The notes: a model not told the origin generated them from the sequence alone. A stretch of DNA of 64,000 nt from Trypanosoma brucei (GCA_000002445.1 CP000071.1:640001-704000); one strand, 5' to 3'; counted from the first letter of the stretch, positions 17,194 to 58,274 are shown. Numbers and translations: made by a program.

Positions 17194-17607
17194 TGCCAGT
17201 GATTATACGTAATGTCTTTGCTACAGGTGATTGTACGATATGACCATACCGACTAAACCAACCGAGATCAATGAGGCATGAAATGTTCCCGCCCCGTTTT
17301 CAATTAAGTGACGGTGTGATTACAGACAGGACGTAAGTGAGTCAATGTCAATATCTCCGTATTACACCATGAGGACTATTGTCCCCCGTGTCTGACCGCC
17401 GCTTCCACCTCCTCTCTCCCTTCTTTTCTCCTTTCTTGTTTCTTCTCTTTCACTTACACATGATGTCATTTCGTATTCTGCAATACTGACAATAACTTGA
17501 GCGAGACAAGACATATTTGACTACTGGCAACTGAAACCCGCCACCCTCTCGGATTCTTTGGTCCTCCACTAGTTACTCAACGGTATTTCACTTTAGCTCA
17601 GCGTATA
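17194..17607 (+). repeat. X element copy 2
   Basis: Same sequence as 13500-13915 and 51294-51710. Confidence 0.85.
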
Positions 17608-17708
17608 CGTGGTTACCTTGGTGTCGTGCGTGCTTCCTTTCTATGTGTGTGGATTTGTGTTTGTATTCTTCTGTGGTAATAGAGTGAAGTTAAATTAAGG
17701 GGTATTTC

Positions 17709-39739: not shown

Positions 39740-42700
39740 GTGGCTCACGCCATGGATACAACCAATGGCGGTGGGAACTGTAACGTTCGGGGCCTTGGGG
39801 GAAGTCTCATTCGGCTGTTGGAACTTTACCCTGTTAAGCAAGTAGCTGCCGATGAGGGAACCACGGAAACGGAGCAGGGTATGAGCAAAGAAGAAGTTAA
39901 CTCACCGTCACCGGTGAAATCGCAGAGGGAAGGGAACATGAAAAGGAATCGTGTGGTGAATTCCCATCCGCCCAAACAAGATGTACTAGATTGTGCCGAA
40001 GTGGGTCAGTACCTGATTGCGACGGGAAGTAAGGACAAGGTGTCGGCAATGCAAGCAAACGTTCTTGAGGTCAGATCGGCGCTCAGTGCTCCGTCTCCTG
40101 TGGCCATACCGAACGCGAATCAGTGTCCCTCGAACGTTCTCCTGACTCCTCTAGTACCTACCGGCGAGTATGTACCGTCCTATGACACGAAGGAGCAAAT
40201 AAAATATTCACTCGTCGGCGAGCCGGGCACTAGGTGCCAATCTCCTTTGCCTCTCTTCCGCGGGAGCCGTGTCGACGACCAGGTGCGGGAAGCAACGATG
40301 TTCTTCAGTAACCTCCTCGCAGCTCGGCAACACGAGTGTGCCGATCAGGAAATGGGGCCGCTTCATGGCGGCTCTGGTGCGCCGTATCAGCTGCCAGCGT
40401 TTTATGACATCTTGAGCCGAACCATCGGTACCTCCCGTAGTCGCGAGGCCGGCCAAGAATCGAGGGAAGCGGGTGGTTATCTTCCTCTAATTTCACCAGT
40501 TCATGCCGGTGCAACCTCCTCTGGGCGCCTGTTTAGAGGTGTGCGCCACAGTAGTGCTCGGTTGAGGTCAAATACGCCACTCGGCAATGACTTTTGTGTT
40601 GGTGGAGTATGCGGACTGATGGGTAGAAGACTGATAGGTGTGCCCGTGCATGACCGCAGGCTTAACGCGCATTTGATGTCATCGTGGGAAAAGGGCGTTA
40701 AGGCAAGGTTACCCGCGAGAAAGGCGTTCAAGGCCATAAAGTCCTCATGTTGGTGGCGGCTGGCGGGCTCACGTGAAGGATTGTTGCTGGCTGCGCGGCT
40801 CGTCAACCTCGATGCTGATGTTTACGAAAGTTTGCTGACACGCTGGGTGGATGGAATCCGCCACTCCTATACCCGGTTTGTGACCGTGAATGTTGATGCT
40901 TTTGTCTCAGAGGACATTGGCCAAAATTTAATTACTGGGCCAAGGGGGAGAAAGTTGGGACCTGTATTGCCCTTTAGTGGTTCTGAGGCGGTGATGAACT
41001 CGTTGTTCCCAGGTGACGTCGAATTGAGTGATATGTTGGGTGTGGCTCGACAACTAGGTTATTTGCAAATGGGAGGGGCCCTTTGCGAAGATGATGTGGC
41101 GCGAGTGTTGCAATGTGACACAAGAACTATCCAACGGGAGCTGCGTCGGCTCATGCTCCAGCGAAGTGGAGGGACCGTGCAGCCACTCGGTGTATTACCC
41201 ATATTTGAAGGGAAGGGATGCCGTTTATACGAACCTAATACCGCTATCAGACAGATTTCGAGGGCAATTCTGCGTGCGAGACGGAGGGCTGCAGCGGAGG
41301 AGGCCAAGAAGAAGGGCAGGAAAATTAGATTCAGCCTGCTTCCGGACGTTACGACGTGCTCTAGGGTTCTGCAGCGCCGTCTTCAAAAGATCGCCGCCAG
41401 CAGGCCAGGGGATGTTCAGGCTCTACTTGAGCAACTGGGGGTGCTTGCCGACGCCGTTAATAGCGGAGGATTAGAGAGTATAAAAAGCTGCCCCGAAGTG
41501 TTGAGTCGTCTCCAGGAAATTATTGCGGACATGCCCCCCGATGTGCAAGCTTCACTTCAGCAGCTGGGGTTCCTCACTGACGATAGCGGTAGGATTTCGG
41601 TGAGTTCTGACGGGCGGCCTCGTGTTTCCCGGGGCCGTTCCAGGAAGGCAGCAAACGTTGTGCCTAGCAACGTTCACAAATTTTTGAAGAAGCTGGACAA
41701 TATTTCTCGAACTATCACTGGTGGTGGCCCCCCGGAGTCGGATGGCTCCGCTGAACTTCTGCAGCGCGGTCTTCAAGAGATCGCCGCCAGCAGGCCAGGG
41801 GATGTTCAGGCTCTACTTGAGCAACTGGGGGTGCTTGCCGACGCCGTTAATAGCGGAGGATTAGAGAGTATAAAAAGCTGCCCCGAAGCGTTGAGTCGTC
41901 TCCAGGAGATTGCTGCCAGCATGCCTCCCGACGTACGAGCTTCACTTCAGCAGCTGGGGTTCCTTCCAGATGGTGACGGCGTAATTGGCGTTGAAAATTT
42001 GTGTGAAGTGGCGAAAAGACAGCAGGAACTAAGTTCTGGTGCTCCTCACCCGTCGGAGGGAATGCGGGGTGCGACAACTGAGGGGTTGAAGAGTCCAACA
42101 GAAGGCGCCTCGTTCAGTGTATCTGCACGCCGCAAAATTCGAAGGAGGACACCAAAAGTAGTGAAAATGGCAGCAGCAGACGAGAAGGGACCTATTGTAC
42201 ACAACGTGCCTCCATCTTCTGTGAAGGACCAAGGCGAAGGTCCCGCTGCCAGGGATAAATCGGCACTCTCCGCCTCCTCTCCGTTAGGTGACGAAGCAAC
42301 TGCCTGGCCCGGAAACCACGCGGCATTCGCCGTCGATGAGTCGGAGGCCGATGCAAAAGACCAGAGTTGGGAAGATACCGCATTTGGGACCAAAAAGGGG
42401 CTGTTGAAGAAGAGACGACGGTTGAGAAGTAAGACGTCCAGCGAGCTCGAGACCCTCACCGATGACGATGCAGAGAGGGCACTCTTTGCGGACAAGCATG
42501 CCAGTTTCGGCAAGCGGTCGTCCCCTGGAAGGTTTAGAGGGCGTACATCGCCCATGGGGGTTTTGGGAATTGAAAGTTTTCCAACTAGTGGAGATGCTGA
42601 TGATCCATTATCGGGCTTCGTTGCATCTCAGCTGAAGGAAAGCTATTCGGGGCCTCAGGAGGGTGAAGAAACAGACGATTACGAGTATACTCCGCGCGAG

Positions 42701-44239
42701 AGGAGCAGGATGAATCGATCAAGAGCACAGCCTGTGTTTTCTGAATGGGACACCGAACAACTACCCCCACAGTTGCCTTCTGGTGCCAAGGATCCCAGGC
42801 TCTTATCGCAGACGGCGAGCATATTGGTGTTTCCTAACAGCGGGAGGAGAGGAAGCAGAGCAGCATCCGTTGCGTCGCGAACGGCATGTAGTGATACTGA
42901 AAGTGTTCGAGGCGTGGAGGACCCGTGGGAGCTCAGCAGCATGTTCAGCAACGATGATAATGAACTTGCGCTGTTTCTCGCAACATTCCCTGATGAGGAA
43001 CGCCACGTACAATTGCGTCGGGAGGCGCACCGTGTCTTGGATGACATCAATGCCGGAAGCAAAGTTCTGGAGGAGTACGCGATAAAATTGAAGGTGCGGC
43101 CCTCGAGCATGGGCCCGTCTGCCGGAGCCGGAGGTGGAATGCAGCCGTGCGAGCAAGAGTGGACTGAACGGGACGAGCAGATGGAGAAGCGTATGCTTGA
43201 GTGCAGAGTGGACATTCAGAGCATGGTGGAGCGCTTCAAGGCAGAGGCGCAGGAGGAGTATGCCGACCTCTGGCGTACGCTTCAGGAGCTTCGGAAACGA
43301 GTGGAGGTCCAAGAAGCTTTGCTTGAGGAGACCAAGTTGGATATAAACCGTCTTTCGTATCCTATGGAGGGTGAAGACACTGATGCCTTCGCACTGAGGC
43401 TGACGCGCGAGGTGAATGCATTTGCCGAACAAAACAAACTGGACCCGCAGCAGCTGAAAGATTTGACAACCGCGAAGCAGGACCGTGAAGCCGCCGTGCG
43501 CAGCTTTCTAGAAAGCTTTGCGCGAACGCGCGGCCGACGGGGAGGTGTAAGTGTTGGGTGCCAATGCACACCAAAAGATCTGGGGTACATCGACACGGAA
43601 GTACTAGAACTTAACAAACAAATGGAGGATCTACAATACCATGCACGTGGCCTGCTTAATTCGATTAAGCTTGTTGTTATATCTATGGGGAATGTACTAA
43701 GTTTCCACTCCGCACTTGAGCTGGAGTCGACATGCAAGCGTTGCTTTTGTATCTTCGAGGAACCCCGGACCTTATGGCCCTGTGGACATTCGTTTTGCTT
43801 GCATTGCCTTACGCAGATGATCTCCAAGGGAGGCGAACTTATATGCGATGAATGTGGGACGCTCTGCCTGGTTGGTTACACACCGAACTTTGCCATTGAA
43901 ATGGTGGCCGGCTACCAACTTATGTGGATCAACTCCGCTGAGGACGATGTGAGCGAGGATTCCTTGTGTAGTTCACCTTCCCCCAAAAGCAGCCTCACGA
44001 GCAGTAACAGTAAAGGCAGTAAACCCTCATCTCATGCAGGGCAAAAGCGTCGTACAGTTGAGAAGGTGCTGGCGGGTCTGCTAAAGGACCTTCTTAGTAC
44101 ACAGGGCTCAGGCAAAGCCACAAGGAAGACAGAGCGGAAGTCAAAGAAGCCCTCCAAGTCAACCTCTGGCGAGTTACCTCTACCGCCGTTGAAAGGGGGC
44201 CTTCCACCGTCGGCGGCAACTAAGGTTCAGTGTGCTTGA
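39740..44239 (+). CDS. large RING-finger (C3HC4) protein with coiled-coil and an internal 130-aa repeat; putative E3 ubiquitin ligase
   Basis: C-terminal CKRCFCIFEEPRTLWPCGHSFCLHCLTQMISKGGELICDECGTLC is a RING-HC. Long coiled-coil before it. Two copies of LQ(R/K)IAASRPGDVQALLEQLGVLADAVNSGGLESIKSCPE.LSRLQEI..MPPDV.ASLQQLGFL. Confidence 0.75.
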   Translation: MAHAMDTTNGGGNCNVRGLGGSLIRLLELYPVKQVAADEGTTETEQGMSKEEVNSPSPVKSQREGNMKRNRVVNSHPPKQDVLDCAEVGQYLIATGSKDKVSAMQANVLEVRSALSAPSPVAIPNANQCPSNVLLTPLVPTGEYVPSYDTKEQIKYSLVGEPGTRCQSPLPLFRGSRVDDQVREATMFFSNLLAARQHECADQEMGPLHGGSGAPYQLPAFYDILSRTIGTSRSREAGQESREAGGYLPLISPVHAGATSSGRLFRGVRHSSARLRSNTPLGNDFCVGGVCGLMGRRLIGVPVHDRRLNAHLMSSWEKGVKARLPARKAFKAIKSSCWWRLAGSREGLLLAARLVNLDADVYESLLTRWVDGIRHSYTRFVTVNVDAFVSEDIGQNLITGPRGRKLGPVLPFSGSEAVMNSLFPGDVELSDMLGVARQLGYLQMGGALCEDDVARVLQCDTRTIQRELRRLMLQRSGGTVQPLGVLPIFEGKGCRLYEPNTAIRQISRAILRARRRAAAEEAKKKGRKIRFSLLPDVTTCSRVLQRRLQKIAASRPGDVQALLEQLGVLADAVNSGGLESIKSCPEVLSRLQEIIADMPPDVQASLQQLGFLTDDSGRISVSSDGRPRVSRGRSRKAANVVPSNVHKFLKKLDNISRTITGGGPPESDGSAELLQRGLQEIAASRPGDVQALLEQLGVLADAVNSGGLESIKSCPEALSRLQEIAASMPPDVRASLQQLGFLPDGDGVIGVENLCEVAKRQQELSSGAPHPSEGMRGATTEGLKSPTEGASFSVSARRKIRRRTPKVVKMAAADEKGPIVHNVPPSSVKDQGEGPAARDKSALSASSPLGDEATAWPGNHAAFAVDESEADAKDQSWEDTAFGTKKGLLKKRRRLRSKTSSELETLTDDDAERALFADKHASFGKRSSPGRFRGRTSPMGVLGIESFPTSGDADDPLSGFVASQLKESYSGPQEGEETDDYEYTPRERSRMNRSRAQPVFSEWDTEQLPPQLPSGAKDPRLLSQTASILVFPNSGRRGSRAASVASRTACSDTESVRGVEDPWELSSMFSNDDNELALFLATFPDEERHVQLRREAHRVLDDINAGSKVLEEYAIKLKVRPSSMGPSAGAGGGMQPCEQEWTERDEQMEKRMLECRVDIQSMVERFKAEAQEEYADLWRTLQELRKRVEVQEALLEETKLDINRLSYPMEGEDTDAFALRLTREVNAFAEQNKLDPQQLKDLTTAKQDREAAVRSFLESFARTRGRRGGVSVGCQCTPKDLGYIDTEVLELNKQMEDLQYHARGLLNSIKLVVISMGNVLSFHSALELESTCKRCFCIFEEPRTLWPCGHSFCLHCLTQMISKGGELICDECGTLCLVGYTPNFAIEMVAGYQLMWINSAEDDVSEDSLCSSPSPKSSLTSSNSKGSKPSSHAGQKRRTVEKVLAGLLKDLLSTQGSGKATRKTERKSKKPSKSTSGELPLPPLKGGLPPSAATKVQCA
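41371..41967 (+). repeat. Intragenic tandem duplication with 390-bp period: about 207 bp at 41371-41577 is near-identical to 41761-41967
   Basis: gcagcgc(c/g)gtcttcaa(a/g)agatcgccgccagcaggccaggggatgttcaggctctacttgagcaactgggggtgcttgccgacgccgttaatagcggaggattagagagtataaaaagctgccccgaag... present twice. Confidence 0.85.
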
Positions 44240-44927
44240 AAAAGCTGTGACGTGCGACATATGTTCCCAGAAGTGTGGTATGCCGGACCAAGGTGTTAGA
44301 CTATCGAGACTTTTAACTTTTTTTCTTACTCCTTCATACCTCTGTTCCTACTTGCCAAAGTCGAATCCCTGTTTGCTGGATTGCCCCACCCGCGCAAAGA
44401 GGGGTACGCGGCAAAAGGGCAAAAATCGCTTGCTGGTGACCAATGAGATGAATGTAATTGACTGCCGGATGATAGCGCAGGCGCCGCCCTTGAGATGACG
44501 GTAAAACATGGACATCCACGTGTCTGTGCCTTTGTAACGTCGCGCTTTGCTGTCTGGGCAGGCATTGTGACCGCCTGCAGTTGTCTAGTTGTTGATATGT
44601 TTCCAGTATTCAGGGTACGCGTTTTTATCCATTTCCCCCGTCATTTGTTTGTTTTTCTCTATTCGTTCTTGCAACTGTTCCCCTCGCAAGTATCTTCCCT
44701 GCTGATTTGGAAGCCGGTGACCTATTTCGGTGCACTGGGTAGCGTGAAGACAACGATGCGGTGACCAGTATACATGTATATATGGATCTGTAGAAGATGT
44801 AAATTTGAAAAGGATGCATTTTTTTCTTTTTGATCAAAACATTACCCATTACTTTGCTTGGTTGGTTGTCCTTTCACTTTGTTCACCATTTTCTCCCACT
44901 TTTTATCAGTTGTTTGAAGGAAGTACA

Positions 44928-45950
44928 ATGAAATTCAAAGCAACAGTACGAGATCGCCGGATGTTAGTGGCCCTGTGTGAGGCATGCCGCCGCTCGGAGA
45001 ACGGTGGTGTCGTTTTAAAGCTTCACGCATCACGGATTCGTGTTTTCACGCGCACTCGGGCCGGGAGCGACATACAGGTTGTTGCTGTTTGCCGCACAGA
45101 TGTTGTTTTTGGTGAATTCAAGGCGCAGCTTGCTGGAAGGAACTCTAGATCCAAGGCTGCGGCAGAGGACGATGCAGATGATGGCGATGCGATATACTGT
45201 GAAATAGCGGACACAAGACGGCTGACACACGTGTTACGGCAGTCGGAACGTTGCCAATTAATCTCCATCAAACTGTCGACCAACCAAAAACGTCGACCGG
45301 TACTTCGAGTGTCTCTGGGAGACACGCAGACAAACCTCGACGTAAGTCACGACGTCCCCGTGGAGGTGTTAGGGTCCAATGAGGCAAGAAGCCTTAGTGC
45401 TCCCTCGCTAAGCTGTGCCGCGAGGCCGCTGGTGCTAGACGGACTTCTTGAACTGGCAACATTTGTGGATAGGGCCCGGTGCGCCTCCTGTGAGCAGGTT
45501 ACATTCTCCGCGTGGAAAAACAAAAGCAGCAGCAAAGGTAGTAAGGACTGCAACAATGCTGGTTCACCTGTCTACACTCTCCTCATTGAAGCAGAATGCT
45601 TTCTCGGTAGTTTTGCTCTTGAATACAATTCCCTAACAGTGGCGAAGGAGGGCGAGGAAGAGGAAGAGGAAGAGGAGGAGGAGGAGGAGGAAGAGAAAGA
45701 AGGAGCCGAGGGGGCTCCAGGAACACCTGGCGACACCGAAAGCTTTGTGGAAGCGCAAGGAAGTAAACAGGGGCCTCTTTTAGCCAGCGTTACGGTAGAG
45801 GCGAGGGCGCTCGCACGGTTTTTGCCCATTCGTGATTTGACAGTGGATTTCGTATGGTTGTACCTCGATCACCAAAAGGCAATTGTCATGTACATCTGTG
45901 CCTCCGGATGCACAAAGCTTTTGGGTTGCATACCGGCTGTAACAAATTGA
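44928..45950 (+). CDS. HUS1: HUS1-like checkpoint clamp (9-1-1 complex) subunit with an inserted poly-Glu acidic stretch
   Basis: [14 protein letters not shown]... start matches the HUS1 N-terminus MKF(R/K)A..VD. [42 protein letters not shown] parallels HUS1 [47 protein letters not shown] parallels HDIPIKVI. Start chosen at the ATG after the pyrimidine tract. Confidence 0.55.
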   Translation: [340 protein letters not shown]

Positions 45951-46482
45951 AAATCCAATGAATGGACACATTCAACCTCTTGTTGGCTAACAAGTGGCTT
46001 TACGGGAGCCCTTTTGCAAACTTTTGAGTCCCCGTTAATCACGTCCTCACACTCGTCTTGCGACTCCAACTGGGAATCACGTTGTACCACATTTGCTTTA
46101 CGAGTTGGTTGGGGGAAGGCGGCCGCCACACAATATCCCCTCTTTCGTGTTACTTAGTGAAGGGAAATTCGAGGTGCATTGTCCTGATTCCCAAATTTGC
46201 GCGTACGTGGTGTCGTGACCGTACTTCCCCCTTTTCCTTTGCCCCTCTTAAACTCTCCTGATTTACTTCCCTCTATTTATTATCGAGCCCCTCATCTGTA
46301 GTCCTATCCAATTTTTGGTGTGACATTTGTACCGCAGAAATTTCCCTCTGCCTGAATTTTGCTACGTCGTTTTCTTTTTTTTTCTTATTTTCAATCTCCG
46401 ACGTCTCACCATCCTGTGAACCTCTACTTGCACCCACACACGTTTCCATGCAACAGGTCGCGGTCGCATAAACCTTAAGGGA

Positions 46483-47904
46483 ATGCGGCGGGCTTCGCAT
46501 GTTTGCACGTCGTGTGAACTGCTGGGTTTCCAGAAGCAATTTCTCATGCTCTCCAACCGCGGTAATAGCAGTGGTGATAATGACGTCATCGATACAAGTG
46601 GCGGCAAGTTCCGCAACGGCAATGGGGATGGAAAAGACGACGATGTTGTGACACCATGGAATGTTTCTGCCACCGGAGTGCGGGGTGTCAACTATGATCG
46701 TGTGTTGGTGCGATTTAAGTCCCAACCTATCGGTGAGCCACTGTTAAAAAGGATGCAGGATGTTTGTGTTGAAAGAGTGAAATGCAATAATAGCGAAAGA
46801 GGACACAATGCGGAAAGGAGTGCAGTGGGTGAAGAGGTGCAGCCATTGCATCACTTCTTCAGGCGTGGCATAGCCTTTTCGCACAGAGATTTTGACATCG
46901 CACTGACCAACGTGCAGGAAGCCTTAAGATCGGGAACTCAGGGAGCGTATTTATACACTGGTCGCGGTCCGAGTACGCGGACAATGCATCTTGGACACGT
47001 GATACCCTTTATGCTTACGCGCTACCTGCAGGATGCGCTCGGGCTGCCGCTAGTCATCCAAATCACCGACGATGAGAAGTTTTTTTTTCGCGATGTACCG
47101 TTGCATGACAACCGATGCTCGGACGGAATTGATATTGTAACCGAAAACATAAAGGATATTATTGCATTTGGCTTTGACCCTAAACGGACGTTTATTTTCC
47201 GGAACACCTCCTACATGGGTAGCATGTATCCTACCGTTGTTCGCCTGCAGCGCACAATGACACTCAGTGCCGTGAAGAATACGCTGGGATTGATCGATAA
47301 TGACAATATCGGGAAAGCCTCCTTCGCTGCTACTCAAGCAGCGCCTTGCTTCAGTAGCTCCTTTCCGTGCATCCTTGGAGAACAAGATTTTGAAAAGCCT
47401 CTACAGTGTATTGTGCCATGTGCCATTGATCAGGATCCGTACTTCGTTCTGGCGCGGGCATCGGCATCCCGCATGAAGTATCGAGCTCCCGCACTACTGC
47501 ATACAAAATTCCTTCCAGCTTTGAAGGGGATGAGACTAAAGATGAGTAGTAGTGCCGAGGAGAGCGGTGTGATAACATTGCACGACTCACCGGAGCAAGT
47601 ACAAAAGAAGATGAAGAAGGCTTTCTCCGGCGGTAGTGGGACACTGGACGACATGAAGACGAAAGGCGTGGATTTGGAGGCCGATGTGGCCTACCAATTC
47701 ATTCGGTTTTTCTCTCCGGACGACGAGATGGTTGGGGAGGTATCGGCAAAGTATGTGGTTGGTGAGATGAACAGCTGTTATGTGAAGAGCTTAGCCGCAG
47801 ATGTTGTCGTCCGGCATGTGCTGCGCAACTGGCAAGCGAAGCGAAAGCTGGTGACAGATGAGGAGGTTCGGCGGTTTACGGAGGTGCGCAACATTATGGC
47901 GTAG
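46483..47904 (+). CDS. tryptophanyl-tRNA synthetase (class I), with N-terminal extension consistent with the mitochondrial isoform
   Basis: HIGH-type motif TGRGPSTRTMHLGHVIPF; KMSKS-type motif KMSSSAEESG; about 90-aa Arg/Ser-rich N-terminal presequence-like extension. Confidence 0.85.
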   Translation: MRRASHVCTSCELLGFQKQFLMLSNRGNSSGDNDVIDTSGGKFRNGNGDGKDDDVVTPWNVSATGVRGVNYDRVLVRFKSQPIGEPLLKRMQDVCVERVKCNNSERGHNAERSAVGEEVQPLHHFFRRGIAFSHRDFDIALTNVQEALRSGTQGAYLYTGRGPSTRTMHLGHVIPFMLTRYLQDALGLPLVIQITDDEKFFFRDVPLHDNRCSDGIDIVTENIKDIIAFGFDPKRTFIFRNTSYMGSMYPTVVRLQRTMTLSAVKNTLGLIDNDNIGKASFAATQAAPCFSSSFPCILGEQDFEKPLQCIVPCAIDQDPYFVLARASASRMKYRAPALLHTKFLPALKGMRLKMSSSAEESGVITLHDSPEQVQKKMKKAFSGGSGTLDDMKTKGVDLEADVAYQFIRFFSPDDEMVGEVSAKYVVGEMNSCYVKSLAADVVVRHVLRNWQAKRKLVTDEEVRRFTEVRNIMA

Positions 47905-48145
47905 GGAGGTTTCGGGGGCGGAAAGGTAGTACAACACCGAGGTCGGTGGGTTCTGAATTTCCCGCATGTTTTTATCGTTTTTTTTTAAATTTGTTGGCCC
48001 GCCATCTTGCTCGGAGTTTTTAAAAAAAAAGTCAAAAGTTTGCGTGTGTGAGCCGGAACGCCCCTCCATTTTTTTTTTGCGGATAGTATCCCCCTGATCG
48101 ATAGGAATCGATAATTTTTGTGCGCAGGTTAATCATAGAGAGGTA

Positions 48146-50689
48146 ATGGACGCGCAAGTTGGAGTTGTTCAGCAACCGGTGACCACTAGTTCAACGATTT
48201 GGGTTGGGGAATGTCAATGTCCAAAATGGAAAAAATCTACCCACCGTGCGGTTGAGCAAAACCTGACGACTTCACTAGAATGCGGTGGAGAAAGAGATGC
48301 ACTCCTTGATGTTGCTTGCGGAAGTGGCATTGACATAGATTCTTTCCTTAGAGAGAAGTGGATTCGTGTAGCATTTACTTCTAGTTTCGGAAGTAACAGT
48401 AGGGTCCGCGTGCGGGCGAGAAGGGTGAGGATAGGTAGCCATGAGTTTGTCGTGGTGGAACGGAACGTTTTTGGGTGTGATGACTCGGTATATCGAAAGG
48501 ATAACAAACTTTGGGAGGGTTTGCCCCGTGGGCAGGCCTGCGTATTTGTCGAATCGGGCGACAGGGCTGGGTTTATACCCATAGGTAGACTTCAAGGCCT
48601 GCGGAAGTTCAATTCCTTCGACGGACCATATGGTATTAGGGGAAGGCAACCCGTTAGTGCTGTTGCGATGGAGGCCATCGACGGGGACTGTGGTCATATC
48701 TCTGCGTTCGTGCACACTGGAGAGCGGTATTGGCTTGTTGGGAACAAAGATACTCACCTATTAGTAAGCTTCAGTGTACCAGAGAAAGATATATTCTCCA
48801 ACACCGCCGAAGGTGGTGCCATAACGAATGAGGGGGACAAGCCACTTCAGGGGGCTAACTATTCACCTCCGTCGCTAGCGGTGCGGATAGCAAGGCTCTG
48901 GGGTCAAACGCTTCGAGCACTTCCCGATGAAAAATCATTCGGTTTGCATGAGTTTTTGTCTTCAAACAGGTACACGGCTTGCTTCGACGCTGTGCTACAG
49001 GACTGTGGACACCTTGTCGACTACGGTGAAGATGAACTTCTACAGTTTTACGCTCTGACCCAAAGTGGTGAATCGCTAGCAGAGGGCTTGTGCGTGGATC
49101 CAGTTAGCGCTATAGTAAACCTGCAGTCCTTTGGTCTTCGTGTAGTCCCCTTCCATAGTGAGCAATGCTCATCAGTACCTGAAATTCTGGATCTTGGAAC
49201 GGACGAGTATTCGCAGTACGGGGGCCAGGTTGCGCGTCGTCTGAACTGCAGAGGAGCGGTTATGTACGGCTTGGACGCCCAGGGCATTGTGGTTCGGTTG
49301 TGGAAGTTACCTTCGCACGCATACGTGGTTGAGCGTGCGGCACAGGAGGCCATTGTGACGCATCGCCTGAGCGGTACCGTCTTGCGCGACAAGTTGCGGA
49401 GGAAGTTAGACCGCTTGCCGAAAGAAATACGACGATGTGTCACTGAATGGAGTTCAGCCCGTCTTGAGCCATTGTTGAACCTTGCAGCGTGGTTGCACAT
49501 TATGGGGAAAGTAACACCGGAGGTTGGCCTCGATGGATTGCAGGAGGTCCGTCGCAGTTGGATAACACTTCAACAGCAACTTGTGAAGCACACAAAGGAC
49601 ATGCGTGAGCACTTACAACTGTACGAGCCCCCAGTGGCCGAGGCAGCTATCAATAACCCGGACGTCATCATGTGTGTGGGGCCACAAGGTTGTGGCAAGT
49701 CCACGTTTTGTCGCGCTTTCTGTGTCTTACTCCAGAAGGTAGGTCAGAAGCCTCGTTGGATCAACCAGGACGAAGTGGGTGGTCGAAATGAGTTTATCGA
49801 GGCCATCCGACGTGCCAAGGAATCCGACTGTACACATATTCTTATAGATAAAATGAATCTTGACGATGCGGCACGAAATGCTGACTACGCCTCTTTCAAC
49901 CTAAAAACGATAACCGTCGCTTGGGTACATCCTTGTGATGTAGACGTTATGGTAAGTACGTGCCTAGAAAGAGTATGCCATCGCGGCAATGCACATCGCA
50001 CATTCAGAGGAACCGTCTCCCCGGGGAAAAAGAGGAAAATGATGACAATTATCCGTGGGTGTGTACAGCGATGCGAACCACCAACAACAGGGATTGTTAT
50101 TGAGGCCAATGTCTTGGACCCCCCGGCCATAACCATAGAATCTGTGTGGAAAGGTCTCTGCCGACACACAATGTCTGAACTTCCAGATATTAAAGATCTT
50201 TCCGTTGCCGACGCGTTGGAAATTGCTCGTAGGTACGAATTACTCTTGTCACACTCATCGCGTCCCTTCAATTGCGGCATCATAAAGGTTGTGAATTCAG
50301 AACTTCTTGTCGCCCTTGTGCCTGCAGATTACCTTGAGGGCAAAAAAATGCGCAAGGAACTCGACATCAGCACAATCTATCTTGGTGACAGATCCCATTT
50401 CGATCTTACGCTTCTGTCAGAGTTACAAACGTTGGAAGGTACTTCCATCCAGGTGGCACCTGTCCGTATCGCGTCCGACGCAAAGGCAACAGCAATTGAA
50501 ATTCGTAACAATAACGAATTCCCATGCCAAAATGCACACCCACACATTACCATTGCTACTGCTCCCGGTGTACCAGCGAAGTATAGCAATGAGCTGCTAA
50601 GCAAAGTAAGCACTGAAACAAGCGACATCAAGGTAATGGAGGTGTCACCTGATGTATCCATTTCAGGTGTGTTTCAGTTTGTGCGGTGA
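48146..50689 (+). CDS. multidomain protein: about 480-aa N-terminal domain, then polynucleotide-kinase-like P-loop, then C-terminal LigT/CNPase-like 2H domain. The architecture resembles CNPase and the kinase-CPD module of Trl1-type tRNA ligase
   Basis: Walker A VIMCVGPQGCGKSTF at about aa 510, with downstream D-x-x-N-L-D (HILIDKMNLDD). The C-terminal 150 aa are homologous to genes A and B: motif 2 HPHITIATAP is intact, motif 1 is ELDISTIYLGD (His to Asp). The last about 260 nt and the 3' flank are identical to gene B. Confidence 0.7.
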   Translation: MDAQVGVVQQPVTTSSTIWVGECQCPKWKKSTHRAVEQNLTTSLECGGERDALLDVACGSGIDIDSFLREKWIRVAFTSSFGSNSRVRVRARRVRIGSHEFVVVERNVFGCDDSVYRKDNKLWEGLPRGQACVFVESGDRAGFIPIGRLQGLRKFNSFDGPYGIRGRQPVSAVAMEAIDGDCGHISAFVHTGERYWLVGNKDTHLLVSFSVPEKDIFSNTAEGGAITNEGDKPLQGANYSPPSLAVRIARLWGQTLRALPDEKSFGLHEFLSSNRYTACFDAVLQDCGHLVDYGEDELLQFYALTQSGESLAEGLCVDPVSAIVNLQSFGLRVVPFHSEQCSSVPEILDLGTDEYSQYGGQVARRLNCRGAVMYGLDAQGIVVRLWKLPSHAYVVERAAQEAIVTHRLSGTVLRDKLRRKLDRLPKEIRRCVTEWSSARLEPLLNLAAWLHIMGKVTPEVGLDGLQEVRRSWITLQQQLVKHTKDMREHLQLYEPPVAEAAINNPDVIMCVGPQGCGKSTFCRAFCVLLQKVGQKPRWINQDEVGGRNEFIEAIRRAKESDCTHILIDKMNLDDAARNADYASFNLKTITVAWVHPCDVDVMVSTCLERVCHRGNAHRTFRGTVSPGKKRKMMTIIRGCVQRCEPPTTGIVIEANVLDPPAITIESVWKGLCRHTMSELPDIKDLSVADALEIARRYELLLSHSSRPFNCGIIKVVNSELLVALVPADYLEGKKMRKELDISTIYLGDRSHFDLTLLSELQTLEGTSIQVAPVRIASDAKATAIEIRNNNEFPCQNAHPHITIATAPGVPAKYSNELLSKVSTETSDIKVMEVSPDVSISGVFQFVR

Positions 50690-51293
50690 TGAACACCTCT
50701 TTCTTCATGTTCTTTTCGGTATAACCTACAGAAGTAACGATGAGTACATTAACGGTTGTTGTTTGTTGTGCTCATCGATGAGGCATTAATACCACCCTTT
50801 GTTTTTCCTTTTTTTCTTCTTTGAATCATTAATAAATTTTATCTTGCTTTGTACAAACAATTTTACGTGATTTATTTTGTCCTTAGACGTAGACAATAAT
50901 TTTGATGATAGTGTTTATGTGGACGAATATATTTCTTTGCAATTCACGATTGGATCCAAGTATATTGATGGGAACTTGTGACTTAGGGGAAACGAGTGGT
51001 GTGCTGACATGCTCTCGCAGCACTGATATTCCCCCATAATGCTATGCACTCTGAACTGCATGTGTTGTGTCTGTGTGTATGTGTATACATGGTGTGTCGT
51101 ATGTCCTTTTTGTCTCTATACAACAATAACCTTATACTACGCATCTTGTTACATTCCAACTTTTTCTCTCTAAAAATATACCTAATTTTACAACAAATTA
51201 GGAGGAGGAGGAGTGTGTCTTAACATTGTTTATGTGCCGTATCGTGATGACAGATATTCAGCTGACGCCACACTCATCGGATGTAAGAAGATG

Positions 51294-51710
51294 TGCCAGT
51301 GATTATACGTAATGTCTTTGCTACAGGTGATTGTACGATATGACCATACCGACTAAACCAACCGAGATCAATGAGGCATGAAATGTTCCCGCCCCGTTTT
51401 CAATTAAGTGACGGTGTGATTACAGACAGGATGTAAGTGAGTCAATGTCAATATCTCCGTATTACACCATGAGGACTATTGTCCCCCGTGTCTGACCGCC
51501 GCTTCCACCTCCTCTCTCCCTTCTTTTCTCCTTTCTTGTTTCTTCTCTTTCACTTACACATGATGTCATTTCGTATTCTGCAATACTGACAATAACTTGA
51601 GCGAGACAAGACATATTTGACTACTGGCAACTGAAACCCGCCACCCTCTCGGATTCTTTGGTCCTCCACTAGTTACTCAACGGTATTTCACTTTAGCTCA
51701 GCGTATATAT
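51294..51710 (+). repeat. X element copy 3
   Basis: Same sequence as 13500-13915. Confidence 0.85.
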
Positions 51711-52158
51711 GAATATAACGTCCACGGAGCTATAAGATGTTCCCATTACCTACCTTTATTGTTATCACGAGGCTCAAAAGAACACACTGAGCGTGTACCA
51801 ATGCCCAGTGAGTGGGACAGCCATCGAAGATAAGTGTTTGTTTTACGGCAATGAGGTTCGAATGCGCCTGACGGTTTTTGTCCGACGTGGTGTGGGAAAC
51901 GCCTCAAAGAAGTTACTGCACCTACACCTTCATTTTCACGGGTATATATTATCCCTGGTCACTAATTGATGTTTGGTATGTTTAATCTGTCACTGAACAC
52001 TACTCACTTGTTTCCCCAGTGTAAGTGTGTCATCTTTCCCGTCTGTGCATTCACATGAATTTTAACTTTTATTACTCATAAATTATGTTTTGCCTCAATT
52101 ATATAGACACCGCTTTATACGCAATTTTAAGCAAGGAAGTCCAACAAGGTGAATTATA

Positions 52159-52758
52159 ATGGGTTGTGGAGGTTCAGCTCCTGCTAACAAAGACAGGCAT
52201 GTGGGTGCAGATCCACCAAAACCTTCAGAGCATTCGGAACATTCAAAACCTTCAGATCCTTCAGATCCTGCTGATGCTACTCGTATTCACAAAATCTGTA
52301 CACTTCCACTACATGACAAGGATAAGCCAGTTGCTGCTGCAGCAATTAGGGTTACCGACCCCAAGTGTATTTCGGATATTTTACCTCCGGAATTCCTTGA
52401 GGGAAAGAAGGTGCATAATGAATTTTGTGCAATTACTCTCTCCTTCGATGATGGAAAGCCGGAGGATGAAGGCCTTTTTGAGAAGTTGAAGGAATTGGAA
52501 GGTACTTCCATCGAATTGAAACCAACCCATATTGTGATGAATGAAAAAGTCGCCGCCATTGGGGTGTGTAATAATGATGAATTCCCCTGCCAGGACGCAC
52601 ACCCGCATATCCTCGTTGCAACTGCTCCAGATGCCACACAGGAGGATATTGATGATGTAACCAAGAAAGGAAAGATTGAGATATTTTGCGCGAGAAAACT
52701 TCCCGATCTGCCACCTGATATCACCATCCCAGGTGAGTTTCGTTTCATGCACTGGTGA
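52159..52758 (+). CDS. acylated 2H-phosphoesterase-like protein, A-type, copy 2
   Basis: 199 aa; differs from copy 1 at a few residues (ATRIHKICTLP vs ATRFKQFCTLP; KGKIEIF vs KGKIKIF). Confidence 0.75.
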   Translation: MGCGGSAPANKDRHVGADPPKPSEHSEHSKPSDPSDPADATRIHKICTLPLHDKDKPVAAAAIRVTDPKCISDILPPEFLEGKKVHNEFCAITLSFDDGKPEDEGLFEKLKELEGTSIELKPTHIVMNEKVAAIGVCNNDEFPCQDAHPHILVATAPDATQEDIDDVTKKGKIEIFCARKLPDLPPDITIPGEFRFMHW

Positions 52759-53821
52759 GTATTTCCCTGTTCCTTGTGTTTCAATGGTTTCACAAGAGTA
52801 CATATGAATTGTTGTAAGTGTGCTGGCAGTTGCTGTTACTCTGATCGATCAAAGAGTTAGTGGTACTGCGCTTCATTACTTTATTACTTTTGCTATTTTG
52901 TTTTACGAATTTACTTGCCTTTGTCCCTTCTTACTTTCCTTTTGATAACCTTTAGATATTTGCGTGTGGAGGTTTTGGTTTACTGTTATACACATCTGGG
53001 GCTATATTCCCTTCATTTGAATTTTATTATTGCGGTATTGACTTTTTCTTTCAAAGAAGATGATGAACGTTGGAATAACGAATAGGGACGATACGAGGGG
53101 AATGAAGAAAAGGCAGAAAAATGATACGGAGAGGAGGGAAAGACAAAATACAAACAATATGTGGGAGAGATATTTTTGCTTTGCTTTGGTTTGATATCTG
53201 TTTTGTTTGTTTTTTTTTCGTTGTGTTCGATGTTTTTTTGATCTTATTTTCCGAGACTTTATTATACAGGATTTGTTTAACTTATGTACTTTATTACCTA
53301 TTGCTTGTGTGCCATTGTTGTGTTACTATGAAACATTTATTGGTGTGGCAGAGTAAAATGTGTTTTGGCATTGCTTTCCACAAGTAACCGAAGGGCACCA
53401 AATATTTGCTACGGGAGAGCACTGAAATGAAAGGAAACAACTAAACACACTGAGCGTGTACCAATGCCCAGTGAGTGGGACAGCCATCGAAGATAAGTGT
53501 TTGTTTTACGGCAATGAGGTTCGAATGCGCCTGACGGTTTTTGTCCGACGTGGTGTGGGAAACGCCTCAAAGAAGTTACTGCACCTACACCTTCATTTTC
53601 ACGGGTATATATTATCCCTTGTCACTAATTGATGTTTGGTATGTTTAATCTGTCACTGAACACTACTCACTTGTTTCCCCAGTGTAAGTGTGTCATCTTT
53701 CCCGTCTGTGCATTCACATGAATTTTAACTTTTATTACTCATAAATTATGTTTTGCCTCAATTATATAGACACCGCTTTATACGCAATTTTAAGCAAGGA
53801 AGTCCAACAAGGTGAATTATA

Positions 53822-54421
53822 ATGGGTTGTGGAGGTTCAGCTCCTGCTAACAAAAACAGGCATGTGGGTGCAGATCCACCAAAACCTTCAGAGCATTCGG
53901 AACATTCAAAACCTTCAGATCCTTCAGATCCTGCTGATGCTACTCGTATTCACAAAATCTGTACACTTCCACTACATGACAAGGATAAGCCAGTTGCTGC
54001 TGCAGCAATTAGGGTTACCGACCCCAAGTGTATTTCGGATATTTTACCTCCGGAATTCCTTGAGGGAAAGAAGGTGCATAATGAATTTTGTGCAATTACT
54101 CTCTCCTTCGATGATGGAAAGCCGGAGGATGAAGGCCTTTTTGAGAAGTTGAAGGAATTGGAAGGTACTTCCATCGAATTGAAACCAACCCATATTGTGA
54201 TGAATGAAAAAGTCGCCGCCATTGGGGTGTGTAACAATGATGAATTCCCCTGCCAGGACGCACACCCGCATATCCTCGTTGCAACTGCTCCAGATGCCAC
54301 ACAGGAGGATATTGATGATGTAACCAAGAAAGGAAAGATTAAGATATTTTGCGCGAGAAAACTTCCCGATCTGCCACCTGATATCACTATCCCAGGTGAG
54401 TTTCGTTTCATGCACTGGTGA
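53822..54421 (+). CDS. acylated 2H-phosphoesterase-like protein, A-type, copy 3
   Basis: 199 aa; ANKNRHVG variant, KGKIKIF. Confidence 0.75.
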   Translation: MGCGGSAPANKNRHVGADPPKPSEHSEHSKPSDPSDPADATRIHKICTLPLHDKDKPVAAAAIRVTDPKCISDILPPEFLEGKKVHNEFCAITLSFDDGKPEDEGLFEKLKELEGTSIELKPTHIVMNEKVAAIGVCNNDEFPCQDAHPHILVATAPDATQEDIDDVTKKGKIKIFCARKLPDLPPDITIPGEFRFMHW

Positions 54422-55484
54422 GTATTTCCCTGTTCCTTGTGTTTCAATGGTTTCACAAGAGTACATATGAATTGTTGTAGGTGTGCTGGCAGTTGCTGTT
54501 ACTCTGATCGATCAAAGAGTTAGTGGTACTGCGCTTCATTACTTTATTACTTTTGCTATTTTGTTTTACGAATTTACTTGCCTTTGTCCCTTCTTACTTT
54601 CCTTTTGATAACCTTTAGATATTTGCGTGTGGAGGTTTTGGTTTACTGTTATACACATCTGGGGCTATATTCCCTTCATTTGAATTTTATTATTGCGGTA
54701 TTGACTTTTTCTTTCAAAGAAGATGATGAACGTTGGAATAACGAATAGGGACGATACGAGGGGAATGAAGAAAAGGCAGAAAAATGATACGGAGGGGAGG
54801 GAAAGACAAAATACAAACAATATGTGGGAGAGATATTTTTGCTTTGCTTTGGTTTGATATCTGTTTTGTTTGTTTTTTTTTCGTTGTGTTCGATGTTTTT
54901 TTGATCTTATTTTCCGAGACTTTATTATACAGGATTTGTTTAACTTATGTACTTTATTACCTATTGCTTGTGTGCCATTGTTGTGTTACTATGAAACATT
55001 TATTGGTGTGGCAGAATAAAATGTGTTTTGGCATTGCTTTCCACAAGTAACCGAAGGGCACCAAATATTTGCTACGGGAGAGCACTGAAATGAAAGGAAA
55101 CAACTAAACACACTGAGCGTGTACCAATGCCCAGTGAGTGGGACAGCCATCGAAGATAAGTGTTTGTTTTACGGCAATGAGGTTCGAATGCGCCTGACGG
55201 TTTTTGTCCGACGTGGTGTGGGAAACGCCTCAAAGAAGTTACTGCACCTACACCTTCATTTTCACGGGTATATATTATCCCTGGTCACTAATTGATGTTT
55301 GGTATGTTTAATCTGTCACTGAACACTACTCACTTGTTTCCCCAGTGTAAGTGTGTCATCTTTCCCGTCTGTGCATTCACATGAATTTTAACTTTTATTA
55401 CTCATAAATTATGTTTTGCCTCAATTATATAGACACCGCTTTATACGCAATTTTAAGCAAGGAAGTCCAACAAGGTGAATTATA

Positions 55485-56084
55485 ATGGGTTGTGGAGGTT
55501 CAGCTCCTGCTAACAAAGACAGGCATGTGGGTGCAGATCCACCAAAACCTTCAGAGCATTCGGAACATTCAAAACCTTCAGATCCTTCAGATCCTGCTGA
55601 TGCTACTCGTATTCACAAAATCTGTACACTTCCACTACATGACAAGGATAAGCCAGTTGCTGCTGCAGCAATTAGGGTTACCGACCCCAAGTGTATTTCG
55701 GATATTTTACCTCCGGAATTCCTTGAGGGAAAGAAGGTGCATAATGAATTTTGTGCAATTACTCTCTCCTTCGATGATGGAAAGCCGGAGGATGAAGGCC
55801 TTTTTGAGAAGTTGAAGGAATTGGAAGGTACTTCCATCGAATTGAAACCAACCCATATTGTGATGAATGAAAAAGTCGCCGCCATTGGGGTGTGTAATAA
55901 TGATGAATTCCCCTGCCAGGACGCACACCCGCATATCCTCGTTGCAACTGCTCCAGATGCCACACAGGAGGATATTGATGATGTAACCAAGAAAGGAAAG
56001 ATTGAGATATTTTGCGCGAGAAAACTTCCCGATCTGCCACCTGATATCACCATCCCAGGTGAGTTTCGTTTCATGCACTGGTGA
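55485..56084 (+). CDS. acylated 2H-phosphoesterase-like protein, A-type, copy 4
   Basis: 199 aa; identical to copy 2. Confidence 0.75.
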   Translation: MGCGGSAPANKDRHVGADPPKPSEHSEHSKPSDPSDPADATRIHKICTLPLHDKDKPVAAAAIRVTDPKCISDILPPEFLEGKKVHNEFCAITLSFDDGKPEDEGLFEKLKELEGTSIELKPTHIVMNEKVAAIGVCNNDEFPCQDAHPHILVATAPDATQEDIDDVTKKGKIEIFCARKLPDLPPDITIPGEFRFMHW

Positions 56085-57134
56085 GTATTTCCCTGTTCCT
56101 TGTGTTTCAATGGTTTCACAAGAGTACATATGAATTGTTGTAAGTGTGCTGGCAGTTGCTGTTACTCTGATCGATCAAAGAGTTAGTGGTACTGCGCTTC
56201 ATTACTTTATTACTTTTGCTATTTTGTTTTACGAATTTACTTGCCTTTGTCCCTTCTTACTTTCCTTTTGATAACCTTTAGATATTTGCGTGTGGAGGTT
56301 TTGGTTTACTGTTATCCACATCTGGGGCTATATTCCCTTCATTTGAATTTTATTATTGCGGTATTGACTTTTTCTTTCAAAGAAGATGATGAACGTTGGA
56401 ATAACGAATAGGGACGATACGAGGGGAATGAAGAAAAGGCAGAAAAATGATACGGAGAGGAGGGAAAGACAAAATACAAACAATATGTGGGAGAGATATT
56501 TTTGCTTTGCTTTGGTTTGATATCTGTTTTGTTTGTTTTTTTTTCGTTGTGTTCGATGTTTTTTTGATCTTATTTTCCGAGACTTTATTATACAGGATTT
56601 GTTTAACTTATGTACTTTATTACCTATTGCTTGTGTGCCATTGTTGTGTTACTATGAAACATTTATTGGTGTGGCAGAATAAAATGTGTTTTGGCATTGC
56701 TTTCCACAAGTAACCGAAGGGCACCAAATATTTGCTATGGGATAGCAATTTAAATGCAGGGAAGGTGAAGGAGGGCAATAATTGGACAATGTAATTTTTT
56801 TTTACTGTTATGTGTTCGATTTGGGTAGGAAAATGTGATTGTGGGAGCTTGTCCTGGGGTGATGGAGGTATTTTTCATTTTTTTGTGATGGTAATGATTT
56901 TTTTTTTTTTGGTCGGCCCTTTGTGTCAACTAGCATCTTCTTTGGAGTAGGTGCATATGTGCGTGCAGCTGCTTTTTAGTGAGCACCTCGTGTTTTAAGT
57001 GTCTTTTTTTATTATACCTTTTTGCTATTACCTTCTTGTTTTTTGCTTTTGAAACGTTTTTGATAATACACTAAAAGAGTAGACAGAAAACAGTAGTTGG
57101 TATATAGAAGAACTTATTAGTCGCTTCTCGAGTT

Positions 57135-57848
57135 GTGATTCTTGTTTGTAGAATTTTTTTTTGGTTTTCTCCTCCTGTGTTGTTGGTTATGTTGATGTTT
57201 CATCTTAACGCCAATAGGCACCTTCTCCAGCCTCCCACGAAGAATCGGCGGGGGGAGGTGGTTTCTCAGACTCAAAGGAATCGTGTGTGTCCCGCTGCTA
57301 TCCGCGCTTACAGATTTTTATCTGATGATATTTCCTCGCAGCTTAACATATGTTGTGCTGTTCTGCAAGTTCCCTTTTCGGGGATCCCCGGCGCCCCTCC
57401 GTCTACAGTAGTGACGAAGGAGTCGGTTCACCCATCGTCAATGCTCGTCGTTTGGAATGATACAACGGCTGCCGAGATCGCCATGTCGTTGCTTCGTGAA
57501 GTACGAGGTGATGTCGATAGTGCTTTTGCTGCTGCAGAGAGTGCTACAAAGGCGGAAGGGGCTGATGAAGTGGTGGGTGCAGCAAACCCCGAAGATAATT
57601 TGGGCGCGTCTCGTGACGATTCCGCCACAGCGGTTTATGTAATCAAGTTGTCCGTGGGCGCCGTGAGCGCTGATGGCAACGCGACGCTGTCACCAATTGC
57701 GTCTGTGGAACTGCGGCAAGTGATTAGGGGGGAGCCGCTGGTCTTTCCCTCGCGACGCGCCGGCATGCCAGCTGTTGATGTACCCATTTCAACTCTCCCG
57801 TACCGTTTGGGTGATCCCATATTCTTTACGTGCAAACGGCTGCGTTGA
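57135..57848 (+). CDS. hypothetical protein (start uncertain; Ala/Ser-rich)
   Basis: 237-aa ORF; the 5' part is pyrimidine-rich and probably UTR; no domain recognised. Confidence 0.2.
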   Translation: MILVCRIFFWFSPPVLLVMLMFHLNANRHLLQPPTKNRRGEVVSQTQRNRVCPAAIRAYRFLSDDISSQLNICCAVLQVPFSGIPGAPPSTVVTKESVHPSSMLVVWNDTTAAEIAMSLLREVRGDVDSAFAAAESATKAEGADEVVGAANPEDNLGASRDDSATAVYVIKLSVGAVSADGNATLSPIASVELRQVIRGEPLVFPSRRAGMPAVDVPISTLPYRLGDPIFFTCKRLR

Positions 57849-58274
57849 ATCTGCCTTTTACTCCTTCCTACACTTAGAGAAGGATGTTGTGTACATGTAC
57901 TATTATTGTGGACTGCTGCGCATGTAAATCGCTGTACTACAGAGCAGGTCCGTAATACTCTAAGGGGAAGCACTTTACTTTTTCCTCGTTGTCCAAGGCA
58001 ATTAACCACTGACTTCGCACTCGTGGAACCCCCTCAAAGGTTGTACATATTATGACGACATGGTCGGTCGCTCATTCTCTCTTTTCTCATTTGGTGCCTC
58101 TTGTCTGGCGTACTAATAGTAGTAGTTTTCCTGAATAGCTGCGCAGGGGCATCCATCACTTCGAGTTTGACGCTTGCGTATAATCCAGCACCCCGTGGCT
58201 TGCTTTAGCTGTCCCCGCGGCAACTGGTAGTGAAAGGAAGGATATATATATATATATATATATCAAAGAAGTAA

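Follow-up and report, generated by a model that had tools for sequence, protein, structure and literature searches.

Within a 64,000-nucleotide stretch of chromosome 8 of Trypanosoma brucei TREU927 (GCA_000002445.1, CP000071.1:640001-704000; hereinafter the window), we analyzed a complete open reading frame (ORF) on the plus strand, Tb927.8.2250, whose 847-residue product is 100% identical to XP_847058.1 (UniProt Q57XG4). An earlier reading of this DNA, made from the sequence by itself, had drawn the ORF exactly, from its ATG to the last base of its stop codon, and had taken its product for a polynucleotide kinase (PNK)-like P-loop protein with a C-terminal 2H domain, preceded by what could be a very divergent ligase domain. 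In the papers searched we found nothing on Tb927.8.2250 beyond proteomic lists and, in the literature searched, no mention of DUF7920, the Pfam family that its N-terminal domain represents; the protein appears to be catalogued yet uncharacterized, and neither what DUF7920 is nor the evolutionary pattern reported here, in which only the kinase is kept, appears to have been described so far.

Three curated Pfam families match the protein: DUF7920 (PF25536) on residues 68-400, at 375.3 bits (E = 2.9e-112; gathering threshold 27 bits) and over profile positions 4-315 of 315; tRNA_lig_kinase on residues 508-645, at 25.8 bits (cut-off 22.7); and tRNA_lig_CPD on residues 767-842, at 35.6 bits (cut-off 23). 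The motifs quoted in the sequence-only reading are therefore not chance resemblances, and each of them was recovered: the Walker A motif VGPQGCGKST, with Lys518 as the P-loop lysine; the best candidate for ligase motif I, AIDGDCGHISAF (residues 177-188), which lacks the lysine and has Ala177 at the ligase Lys position; a first 2H motif, ELDISTIYLGD, which has Asp740-Ile-Ser742 instead of H-x-T and no histidine; and an intact second 2H motif, HPHITIA, with His800-Ile-Thr802. The order of the domains, with an N-terminal ligase-like domain, a central polynucleotide kinase and a C-terminal 2H CPD domain, is that of Trl1. The ligase-like domain that had been anticipated upstream of the P-loop is real, but it measures about 330-420 residues (68 to ~482) and not the 480 first proposed.

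To an exhaustive profile search with this N-domain 513 cluster representatives responded, 311 of them at E <= 1e-10, and the family consensus at the site of the decayed motif I is near-invariant (eKENGEcaH); the corresponding motif of Chaetomium Trl1 is TLKENG (PMC6379707). Searched against the PDB, a profile of 50 family sequences recovered the Trl1 LIG-KIN structure 9r3w (E = 1e-21) in an alignment that begins within the N-domain and places the family's 'TacfEaif' on TAVAELC (motif III), 'NsEGaVvy' on DVEGFVIR (motif IV), 'yKeK' on FKYK (motif V) and, downstream, 'H' and 'RavRE' on His227 and Arg334/Arg337. The Trl1 ligase domain was reached only with this 50-sequence profile: a single-sequence search of the PDB gave generic P-loop matches only, and a 10-sequence profile retrieved Trl1 KIN-CPD and not the ligase domain. 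Of 50 DUF7920 family members, ten have an additional match to Pfam RNA_lig_T4_1 and four to RNA_ligase. The same 50-sequence profile recovered Candida Trl1 KIN-CPD (E = 9e-24), and Foldseek did likewise (E = 1e-12, with the structure 6u05), with CNPase a far weaker match (2e-5); the kinase-CPD cassette, earlier likened to those of both Trl1 and CNPase, is thus of the Trl1 type and not of the CNPase type.

A full-length AlphaFold (AF2) model built with the 50-sequence alignment reached a predicted local distance difference test score (pLDDT) of 86.5 and a predicted template modeling score of 0.77, and its Foldseek search returned 9r3w first (E = 2.7e-15 over 682 columns), followed by 6u05; an AF2 model of the N-domain from eight sequences had a pLDDT of 56 and was not used. 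Taken together, the profile, model and Foldseek results establish DUF7920 as a divergent Trl1/Rnl1-type ligase domain and Tb927.8.2250 as a full-length paralogue of Trl1. With Trl1 coming first for all three domains, we found neither an unrelated fold in the N-domain nor a non-PNK kinase family in the P-loop region, and the proposal of a very divergent ligase is borne out alike by the family-profile, model and structure searches. The T. brucei domain has the fold of the Rnl1/Trl1 branch of the covalent lysine nucleotidyltransferase superfamily, and at the position of the superfamily's catalytic lysine nucleophile it has Ala177.

The wider DUF7920 family is dominated by the architecture DUF7920-KIN-CPD, found in 90 of the sequences examined; in a 50-member sample, Pfam detects DUF7920 in all 50, tRNA_lig_CPD in 43 and tRNA_lig_kinase in 34. 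Named members come from Bodo saltans, Angomonas and two Amoeboaphelidium species, and most of the others are unnamed metagenomic sequences, many of which may be viral (member taxonomy was taken from cluster look-ups, a broad-profile protein search having returned 12 kinetoplastid proteins only). Most members, among them those of Bodo saltans and Amoeboaphelidium and many metagenomic sequences, keep all catalytic residues in the three domains, and these are on that account presumably active heal-and-seal enzymes.

Set against this background, the T. brucei ligase-like domain is strongly altered (Table 1). Six ligase residues, K148, E218, E300, K323, K325 and R337 in Chaetomium numbering, are each essential in yeast Trl1 (PMC6379707). 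The motif I lysine is gone, and across motifs III, IV and V and the His/Arg site for the 2'-phosphate four of seven residues are replaced. The residues kept are Arg128, Lys154 and Phe155 (= R99, K120 and F121 of Chaetomium Trl1, which contact the ATP gamma-phosphate and the adenine), along with Gly180, Gly370, Lys387 (= K323), His289 (= H227) and Arg397. With CPD motif 1 decayed as well as ligase motifs I, III, IV and V, the second option of the sequence-only reading, a paralogue of the ligase with catalytic residues missing from two of its domains, describes the protein well. At the level of the whole domain, identity among Trypanosoma species is 47-50% for the ligase-like domain, as compared with 48-56% for the kinase and 42-54% for the CPD domain; conserved like its neighbors and confidently folded in the model, the ligase-like domain is not decaying as a domain, and it is probably retained for a non-catalytic purpose.

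The kinase domain presents the opposite picture, with every catalytic residue in place at positions that are 97-100% conserved in the family. The counterparts of its lid residues Arg613 and His617 (R511 and H515 in S. cerevisiae) are essential in yeast, and mutations of the P-loop Lys and Thr are lethal in Candida (PMC7145591). Asp542 was assigned as the catalytic aspartate from the alignment of the family's QDe with QND, the D445N mutant chain 6tzo having N at that place. In the CPD domain the 2H fold is present, and of its two H-x-[ST] motifs only the distal one remains. The His740Asp change is not a sequencing error, since a T. b. equiperdum assembly made independently has it too.

Table 1. 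Features of Tb927.8.2250 and its surroundings in the window. Trl1 equivalents are from Chaetomium (Cth), Candida (Cal) or S. cerevisiae (Sce), those of the ligase having been mapped via the profile alignment and PMC6379707; family counts are of DUF7920 members outside the trypanosomatid set.
Feature	Position	Strand	Residues	State in T. brucei	Trl1 equivalent	Family
Complete ORF, Tb927.8.2250 / Q57XG4	48146-50689	+	847 aa plus stop	ATG to stop
N-terminus	48146-48286	+	1-47	unconserved, predicted disordered (pLDDT < 50)
Ligase-like domain	48347-49591	+	68-482	DUF7920 (68-400), then a helical sub-domain at the C-terminal end; fold of Trl1-LIG/Rnl1, catalysis predicted to be lost
Motif I	48671-48697	+	176-184	EAIDGDCGH, decayed; Ala177 for AMP-accepting Lys, Gly180 kept	Cth K148	Lys 126/132
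Motif I, Asn position			179	Asp179	Cth N150	Asn 114/132
Motif III	48974-48994	+	277-283	TACFDAV, decayed; Asp281 for Glu	Cth E218	Glu 123/137
Motif IV	49247-49267	+	368-374	CRGAVMY, decayed; Arg369 for metal-binding Glu, Gly370 kept	Cth E300	Glu 125/138
Motif V	49298-49312	+	385-389	LWKLP; Lys387 kept (K323), Pro389 for second Lys	Cth K325	Lys 119/138
2'-phosphate site	49343-49345	+	400	Gln400	Cth R337	Arg 119/136
Kinase domain	49631-50095	+	496-650	Trl1-type P-loop polynucleotide kinase, catalytic residues all intact
P-loop	49679-49705	+	512-520	GPQGCGKST; Lys518, Ser519		Lys 104/104; Ser/Thr 104/104
Catalytic Asp	49769-49771	+	542	Asp542 (NQDE)	Cal D445	Asp 103/104
Lid RxxxR	49970-49999	+	609-618	RVCHRGNAHR; R, R and H all conserved
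Lid, first Arg			609	Arg609	Cal R528	Arg 100/100
Lid, second Arg			613	Arg613	Sce R511	Arg 99/99
Lid, His			617	His617	Sce H515	His 97/97
CPD-like domain	50261-50686	+	706-847	2H fold
Proximal HxT	50363-50371	+	740-742	D-I-S, decayed; His to Asp740, Thr to Ser742		His 70/74; Thr 70/75
His740Asp codon	50363-50365	+	740	GAC
Distal HxT	50543-50551	+	800-802	H-I-T, intact; His800, Thr802		His 77/77; Thr 76/77
Upstream syntenic block	39740-47904	+		RING-finger protein 39740-44239, Hus1 44805-45950, Trp-tRNA synthetase 46483-47904
199-aa POMP39 genes	14365-14964, 52159-52758, 53822-54421, 55485-56084	+		the last three form an exact tandem repeat with a period of 1663 bp
186-aa chimeric gene (P0177)	16024-16584 (flanks 15400-17607)	+		POMP39-type MGCGGS N-terminus plus CPD domain
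Tract shared with P0177	50313-51707 (= 16208-17607)	+		~99.5% identical, extends ~1 kb beyond the stop codon
Divergent patch in the shared tract	50347-50420			74 bp, covers motif 1

Comparison with the relatives of the protein gives this decay a direction. Motif 1 of the CPD domain reads H-[VI]-T in T. congolense, T. vivax, T. theileri, T. melophagium, T. cruzi and T. rangeli, all six of which keep both HxT motifs, and His740Asp was seen in T. brucei and T. b. equiperdum alone; the loss of this histidine is thus specific to the T. brucei lineage. In a distance tree of the N-domain, the trypanosomatid sequences fall into two clades, of which clade A comprises Trypanosoma, Angomonas deanei (P0024) and a further sequence, P0042. 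The gene order RING - Hus1 - TrpRS (Trp-tRNA synthetase) - DUF7920 is common to the window (39740-50689) and the P0042 locus of a distant trypanosomatid (GCA_017916325.1, CM030418.1), which marks clade A as a true orthologue group. The P0042 orthologue is enlarged to 1291 aa, with DUF7920 and the kinase as its only recognizable parts. Clade B (L. tarentolae/Porcisia, including the L. tarentolae P0010 type) lies at an unrelated locus and consists of paralogues; no clade B sequence from Trypanosoma was found among the best 150 matches. The Leishmania, Porcisia and P0012 sequences were considered as orthologues and rejected on the tree, the shared substitutions and synteny, all of which place them in this paralogous clade. 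P0012, a 1183-aa clade B protein from a Logan contig, has an RRM domain (PF00076) inserted within its ligase domain directly after motif I (alignment columns ~245-400), and its catalytic residues are all intact.

Members of clade A have in common the substitutions N150D, E218D (in most), loss of E300, K325R/P and R337Q, from which it follows that damage to the ligase domain dates back to the clade A ancestor. The motif I lysine itself was lost later, in Trypanosoma, where A, L or T takes its place, and these differing replacements suggest relaxed constraint in that genus. The clade A members outside Trypanosoma keep the motif I lysine and have lost both HxT motifs together with the Pfam CPD signal. 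The kinase residues alone are invariant across every clade A sequence.

A scan of the window with a CPD profile uncovered five further CPD-derived ORFs. Four of these are 199-aa POMP39 genes of the outer-mitochondrial-membrane proteome (Tb927.8.2260 is POMP39-2). Their products begin with MGCGGS, a probable dual-acylation signal, and share 35% identity with the CPD domain of Tb927.8.2250 (E = 8e-34); motif 1 reads C-A-I and motif 2 H-I-L, such that three of the four HxT residues are lost. By their sequences, the POMP39 proteins are degenerate CPD-domain spin-offs of the Trl1-like gene. The fifth ORF, the 186-aa chimera P0177, has both HxT motifs intact (EFHITT and HPHITIA; tRNA_lig_CPD E 2.2e-11 across both). 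Its 5' flank and N-terminus are of the POMP39 type (~99% identical), and beyond these it shares a near-identical tract with Tb927.8.2250, the exception being a 74-bp patch with 34 differences in 74 positions, which encodes EFHITT in P0177 and ELDIST in Tb927.8.2250. This mosaic of near-identity around a divergent patch indicates that gene conversion acted on either side of it. A recent copying of the patch from the 199-aa genes was considered and rejected, identity there being only 55%. As homologues of these small CPD-derived genes, only proteins of the T. brucei lineage were found. GC content is 0.40-0.43 at 12000-18000 and 50000-58000, where the POMP39-type genes lie, versus ~0.50 elsewhere, in keeping with segments that are repeated and were exchanged recently. 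On the other side of Tb927.8.2250, the Trp-tRNA synthetase has an N-terminal extension of ~150 aa, its Pfam class I catalytic match beginning at residue 157, and may be the mitochondrial TrpRS2.

We read these patterns, with a probability of roughly 0.6, as those of a Trl1-like paralogue that works as a kinase only, with a pseudo-ligase domain and a weakened CPD domain. Tb927.8.2250 belongs to a large uncharacterized sister family of Trl1, within which clade A would have specialized: the kinase site (Lys518/Ser519, Asp542, Arg609, Arg613, His617) is held invariant, the ligase domain would have turned into a pseudo-enzyme, and the CPD domain would have become dispensable, being lost in the Leishmania-like and Angomonas orthologues and weakened by His740Asp in T. 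brucei. The T. brucei protein would then be unable to self-adenylylate or to seal RNA and would still phosphorylate 5'-OH RNA ends, its ligase-like domain binding RNA ends or nucleotides via Arg128, Lys154, Phe155, Lys387 and His289, and its CPD activity being lowered, not necessarily to zero. In the cell, it could phosphorylate the 5' ends of cleaved cytoplasmic RNAs and in this way, for instance, license their 5'-3' decay. TrypTag gives the localization of Tb927.8.2250 as 'endocytic, cytoplasm(weak)', and the protein has been detected near Alba4 in starvation stress granules (PMC10998879); the cytoplasmic signal and the proximity to Alba4 both fit a role in the 5'-phosphorylation of cleaved cytoplasmic RNAs.

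Several considerations weigh against this interpretation. The activity or inactivity ascribed here to Tb927.8.2250 and other DUF7920 proteins is read from their residues, from which neither the phosphate donor of the kinase (GTP or ATP) nor its substrate (RNA, DNA or other) can be told. The role in licensing decay is speculation by analogy with yeast, where the Trl1 kinase has known non-splicing roles. The retention of R128, K154, F155, G180, K387 and H289 leaves room for a non-canonical nucleotide-dependent activity of the ligase-like domain. Exchanging the proximal HxT histidine for alanine leaves Candida, yeast and plant Trl1 only sick or temperature-sensitive, the distal change being lethal (PMC7145591); the T. 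brucei CPD domain may thus still work, and it is for this reason that we call it weakened and not dead. Finally, the split between clades A and B stands on a distance tree that carries no support values, on shared substitutions and on synteny in one species each. A more ambitious version, which we regard as unlikely, would make the decayed ligase a reader of broken RNA ends that recognizes a 5'-phosphate, a 2'-phosphate or a nucleotide and targets the kinase to cleaved RNAs in the cytoplasm or in stress granules, as part of a trypanosomatid-specific 'mark-for-decay or surveillance' pathway. In T. brucei the CPD role would in that case have passed to the acylated 186-aa protein, with its two intact HxT motifs and a sequence held at ~99.5% identity to Tb927.8.2250 by gene conversion, so that the healing steps would lie in separate proteins, one a soluble kinase and the other a membrane-anchored CPD, with the POMP39 proteins as further derivatives that are non-catalytic.

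Among the alternatives, the first option of the sequence-only reading, that Tb927.8.2250 is the trypanosome tRNA ligase TbTrl1 itself with unusual motifs, draws on the equal domain order, the close lengths (847 versus 870 aa) and the label 'tRNA ligase' that some databases give to orthologues (T. melophagium). The published TbTrl1 is, however, a different gene, with KLAG (K107), TKH, AAVSCECI, EGYVV and LKAK, GxGKT at 400-404, RxxxR at 524-528 and HVTV at 739 and 802 (PMC4931112). Setting the two apart by this description, that is, by the published motif strings and positions, we found none of the signature strings either in Tb927.8.2250, whose P-loop lies at 512-520 and whose motif I has no lysine, or in a six-frame translation of the window, and the identity is hardly credible. 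To TbTrl1 are assigned tRNA-Tyr splicing and exon joining (PMC4931112; bioRxiv 10.64898/2026.08.16.745097). K107A, K403A and H802A are loss-of-function alleles of that gene, and the kinase (K403A) and CPD (H802A) mutants fail to rescue its depletion by RNA interference (bioRxiv 10.64898/2026.08.16.745097); Tb927.8.2250 therefore supplies no redundant healing for tRNA-Tyr splicing. The chance that the P-loop is that of an adenylate-kinase-like or other NTPase, next to an unrelated N-domain and without kinship to RNA repair, is just as close to nil: the AAA/ABC/SRP54 matches that could hint at it in single-sequence searches are weak and generic and cover the P-loop only, and the Trl1 kinase and CPD families of Pfam score above their curated cut-offs, with Trl1 first for all three domains by profile and by structure.

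The remaining alternatives concern what the protein does. A role purely as a pseudo-enzyme, in which a protein with no catalytic domain would bind RNA as a scaffold or regulator and use its P-loop only for nucleotide-dependent conformational control, would suit a protein with two of three domains decayed that is detected near Alba4 RNA granules. We nonetheless hold it to be improbable: the kinase residues are invariant in the trypanosomatid orthologues and in about 100 family members while the neighboring domains decay, the pattern expected if selection maintains kinase catalysis. A kinase active on DNA ends, a nucleotide or a small molecule, for which the RNA-repair ancestry would now be irrelevant, seems less probable still; the endocytic signal in TrypTag and the presence of APS, gluconate, nucleoside-monophosphate and Sep-tRNA kinases among the weaker structural neighbors are outweighed by Trl1 and the Mucorales RNA 5'-kinases being the best sequence and structure matches by a wide margin, by a lid, RxxxR-G-x-x-H, specific to the RNA 5'-kinases of these two groups, and by flanking domains with RNA-end-binding folds. 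Very improbable, in our view, is an active three-function heal-and-seal enzyme that uses another nucleophile or residue set, with Asp740 as general acid. Its ligase-like domain is admittedly well folded, conserved like the kinase and still in possession of residues that contact ATP or phosphate in Trl1 (R128, K154, F155, G180, K387, H289), and Trl1 CPD mutants without the proximal histidine function in part; but five residues of yeast Trl1-LIG that are individually essential, the AMP-carrying lysine included, have changed together, the varying motif I substitute (A, L, T) points to relaxed constraint rather than to a novel means of catalysis, and the CPD motifs are wholly lost in syntenic orthologues.

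Because Trl1 is absent from humans, it is being explored as a drug target in fungi and trypanosomes; the presence of another Trl1-like protein in the parasite would bear on target selectivity and on how kinase- or CPD-directed inhibitors are read. DUF7920 gains an identity as a Trl1-type ligase domain, and with it a large family comes into view, unstudied so far, whose tripartite RNA-repair enzymes are probably active and which spans protists and possibly giant viruses. In the trypanosomatids, the predicted series of a dead ligase, an optional CPD and a kinase that is kept would illustrate pseudo-enzyme evolution and make the role of a Trl1 kinase outside tRNA splicing directly testable. Descent from the CPD domain, moreover, explains the origin of the T. 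brucei POMP39 membrane proteins.

Of the known systems that the protein resembles, the tripartite 'RNA ligase' proteins of giant viruses (738-891 aa) match it over the full length in a comparison by structure: Foldseek retrieved those of Homavirus (E = 1.6e-39, over ~800 columns), Cafeteria roenbergensis virus, Marseillevirus LCMAC202, Tupanvirus and Bodo saltans virus. Vertebrate CNPase pairs a PNK-like P-loop with a 2H domain without a ligase domain, and has both HxT histidines. The stand-alone GTP-dependent RNA 5'-kinases of Mucorales (PDB 9drz, 9d8a) are single-domain proteins of 160-180 aa; unlike them, the kinase of Tb927.8.2250 has a ligase-like domain on one side and a CPD-like domain on the other. 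The nearest system is Trl1, with the same three domains in the same order, a Trl1-specific P-loop, Asp and RxxxRGxxH lid, and a 2H fold with the distal HxT, to which the wider DUF7920 family adds a K-E-N-G motif I and the His/Arg pair that binds a 2'-phosphate mimic. From Trl1 it differs in that identity to the fungal Trl1 structures is 13-17% and Pfam holds DUF7920 as a family of its own, and in that T. brucei has replaced the motif I Lys, the Glu residues of motifs III and IV, the second Lys of motif V, the Arg of the 2'-phosphate site and the proximal CPD His.

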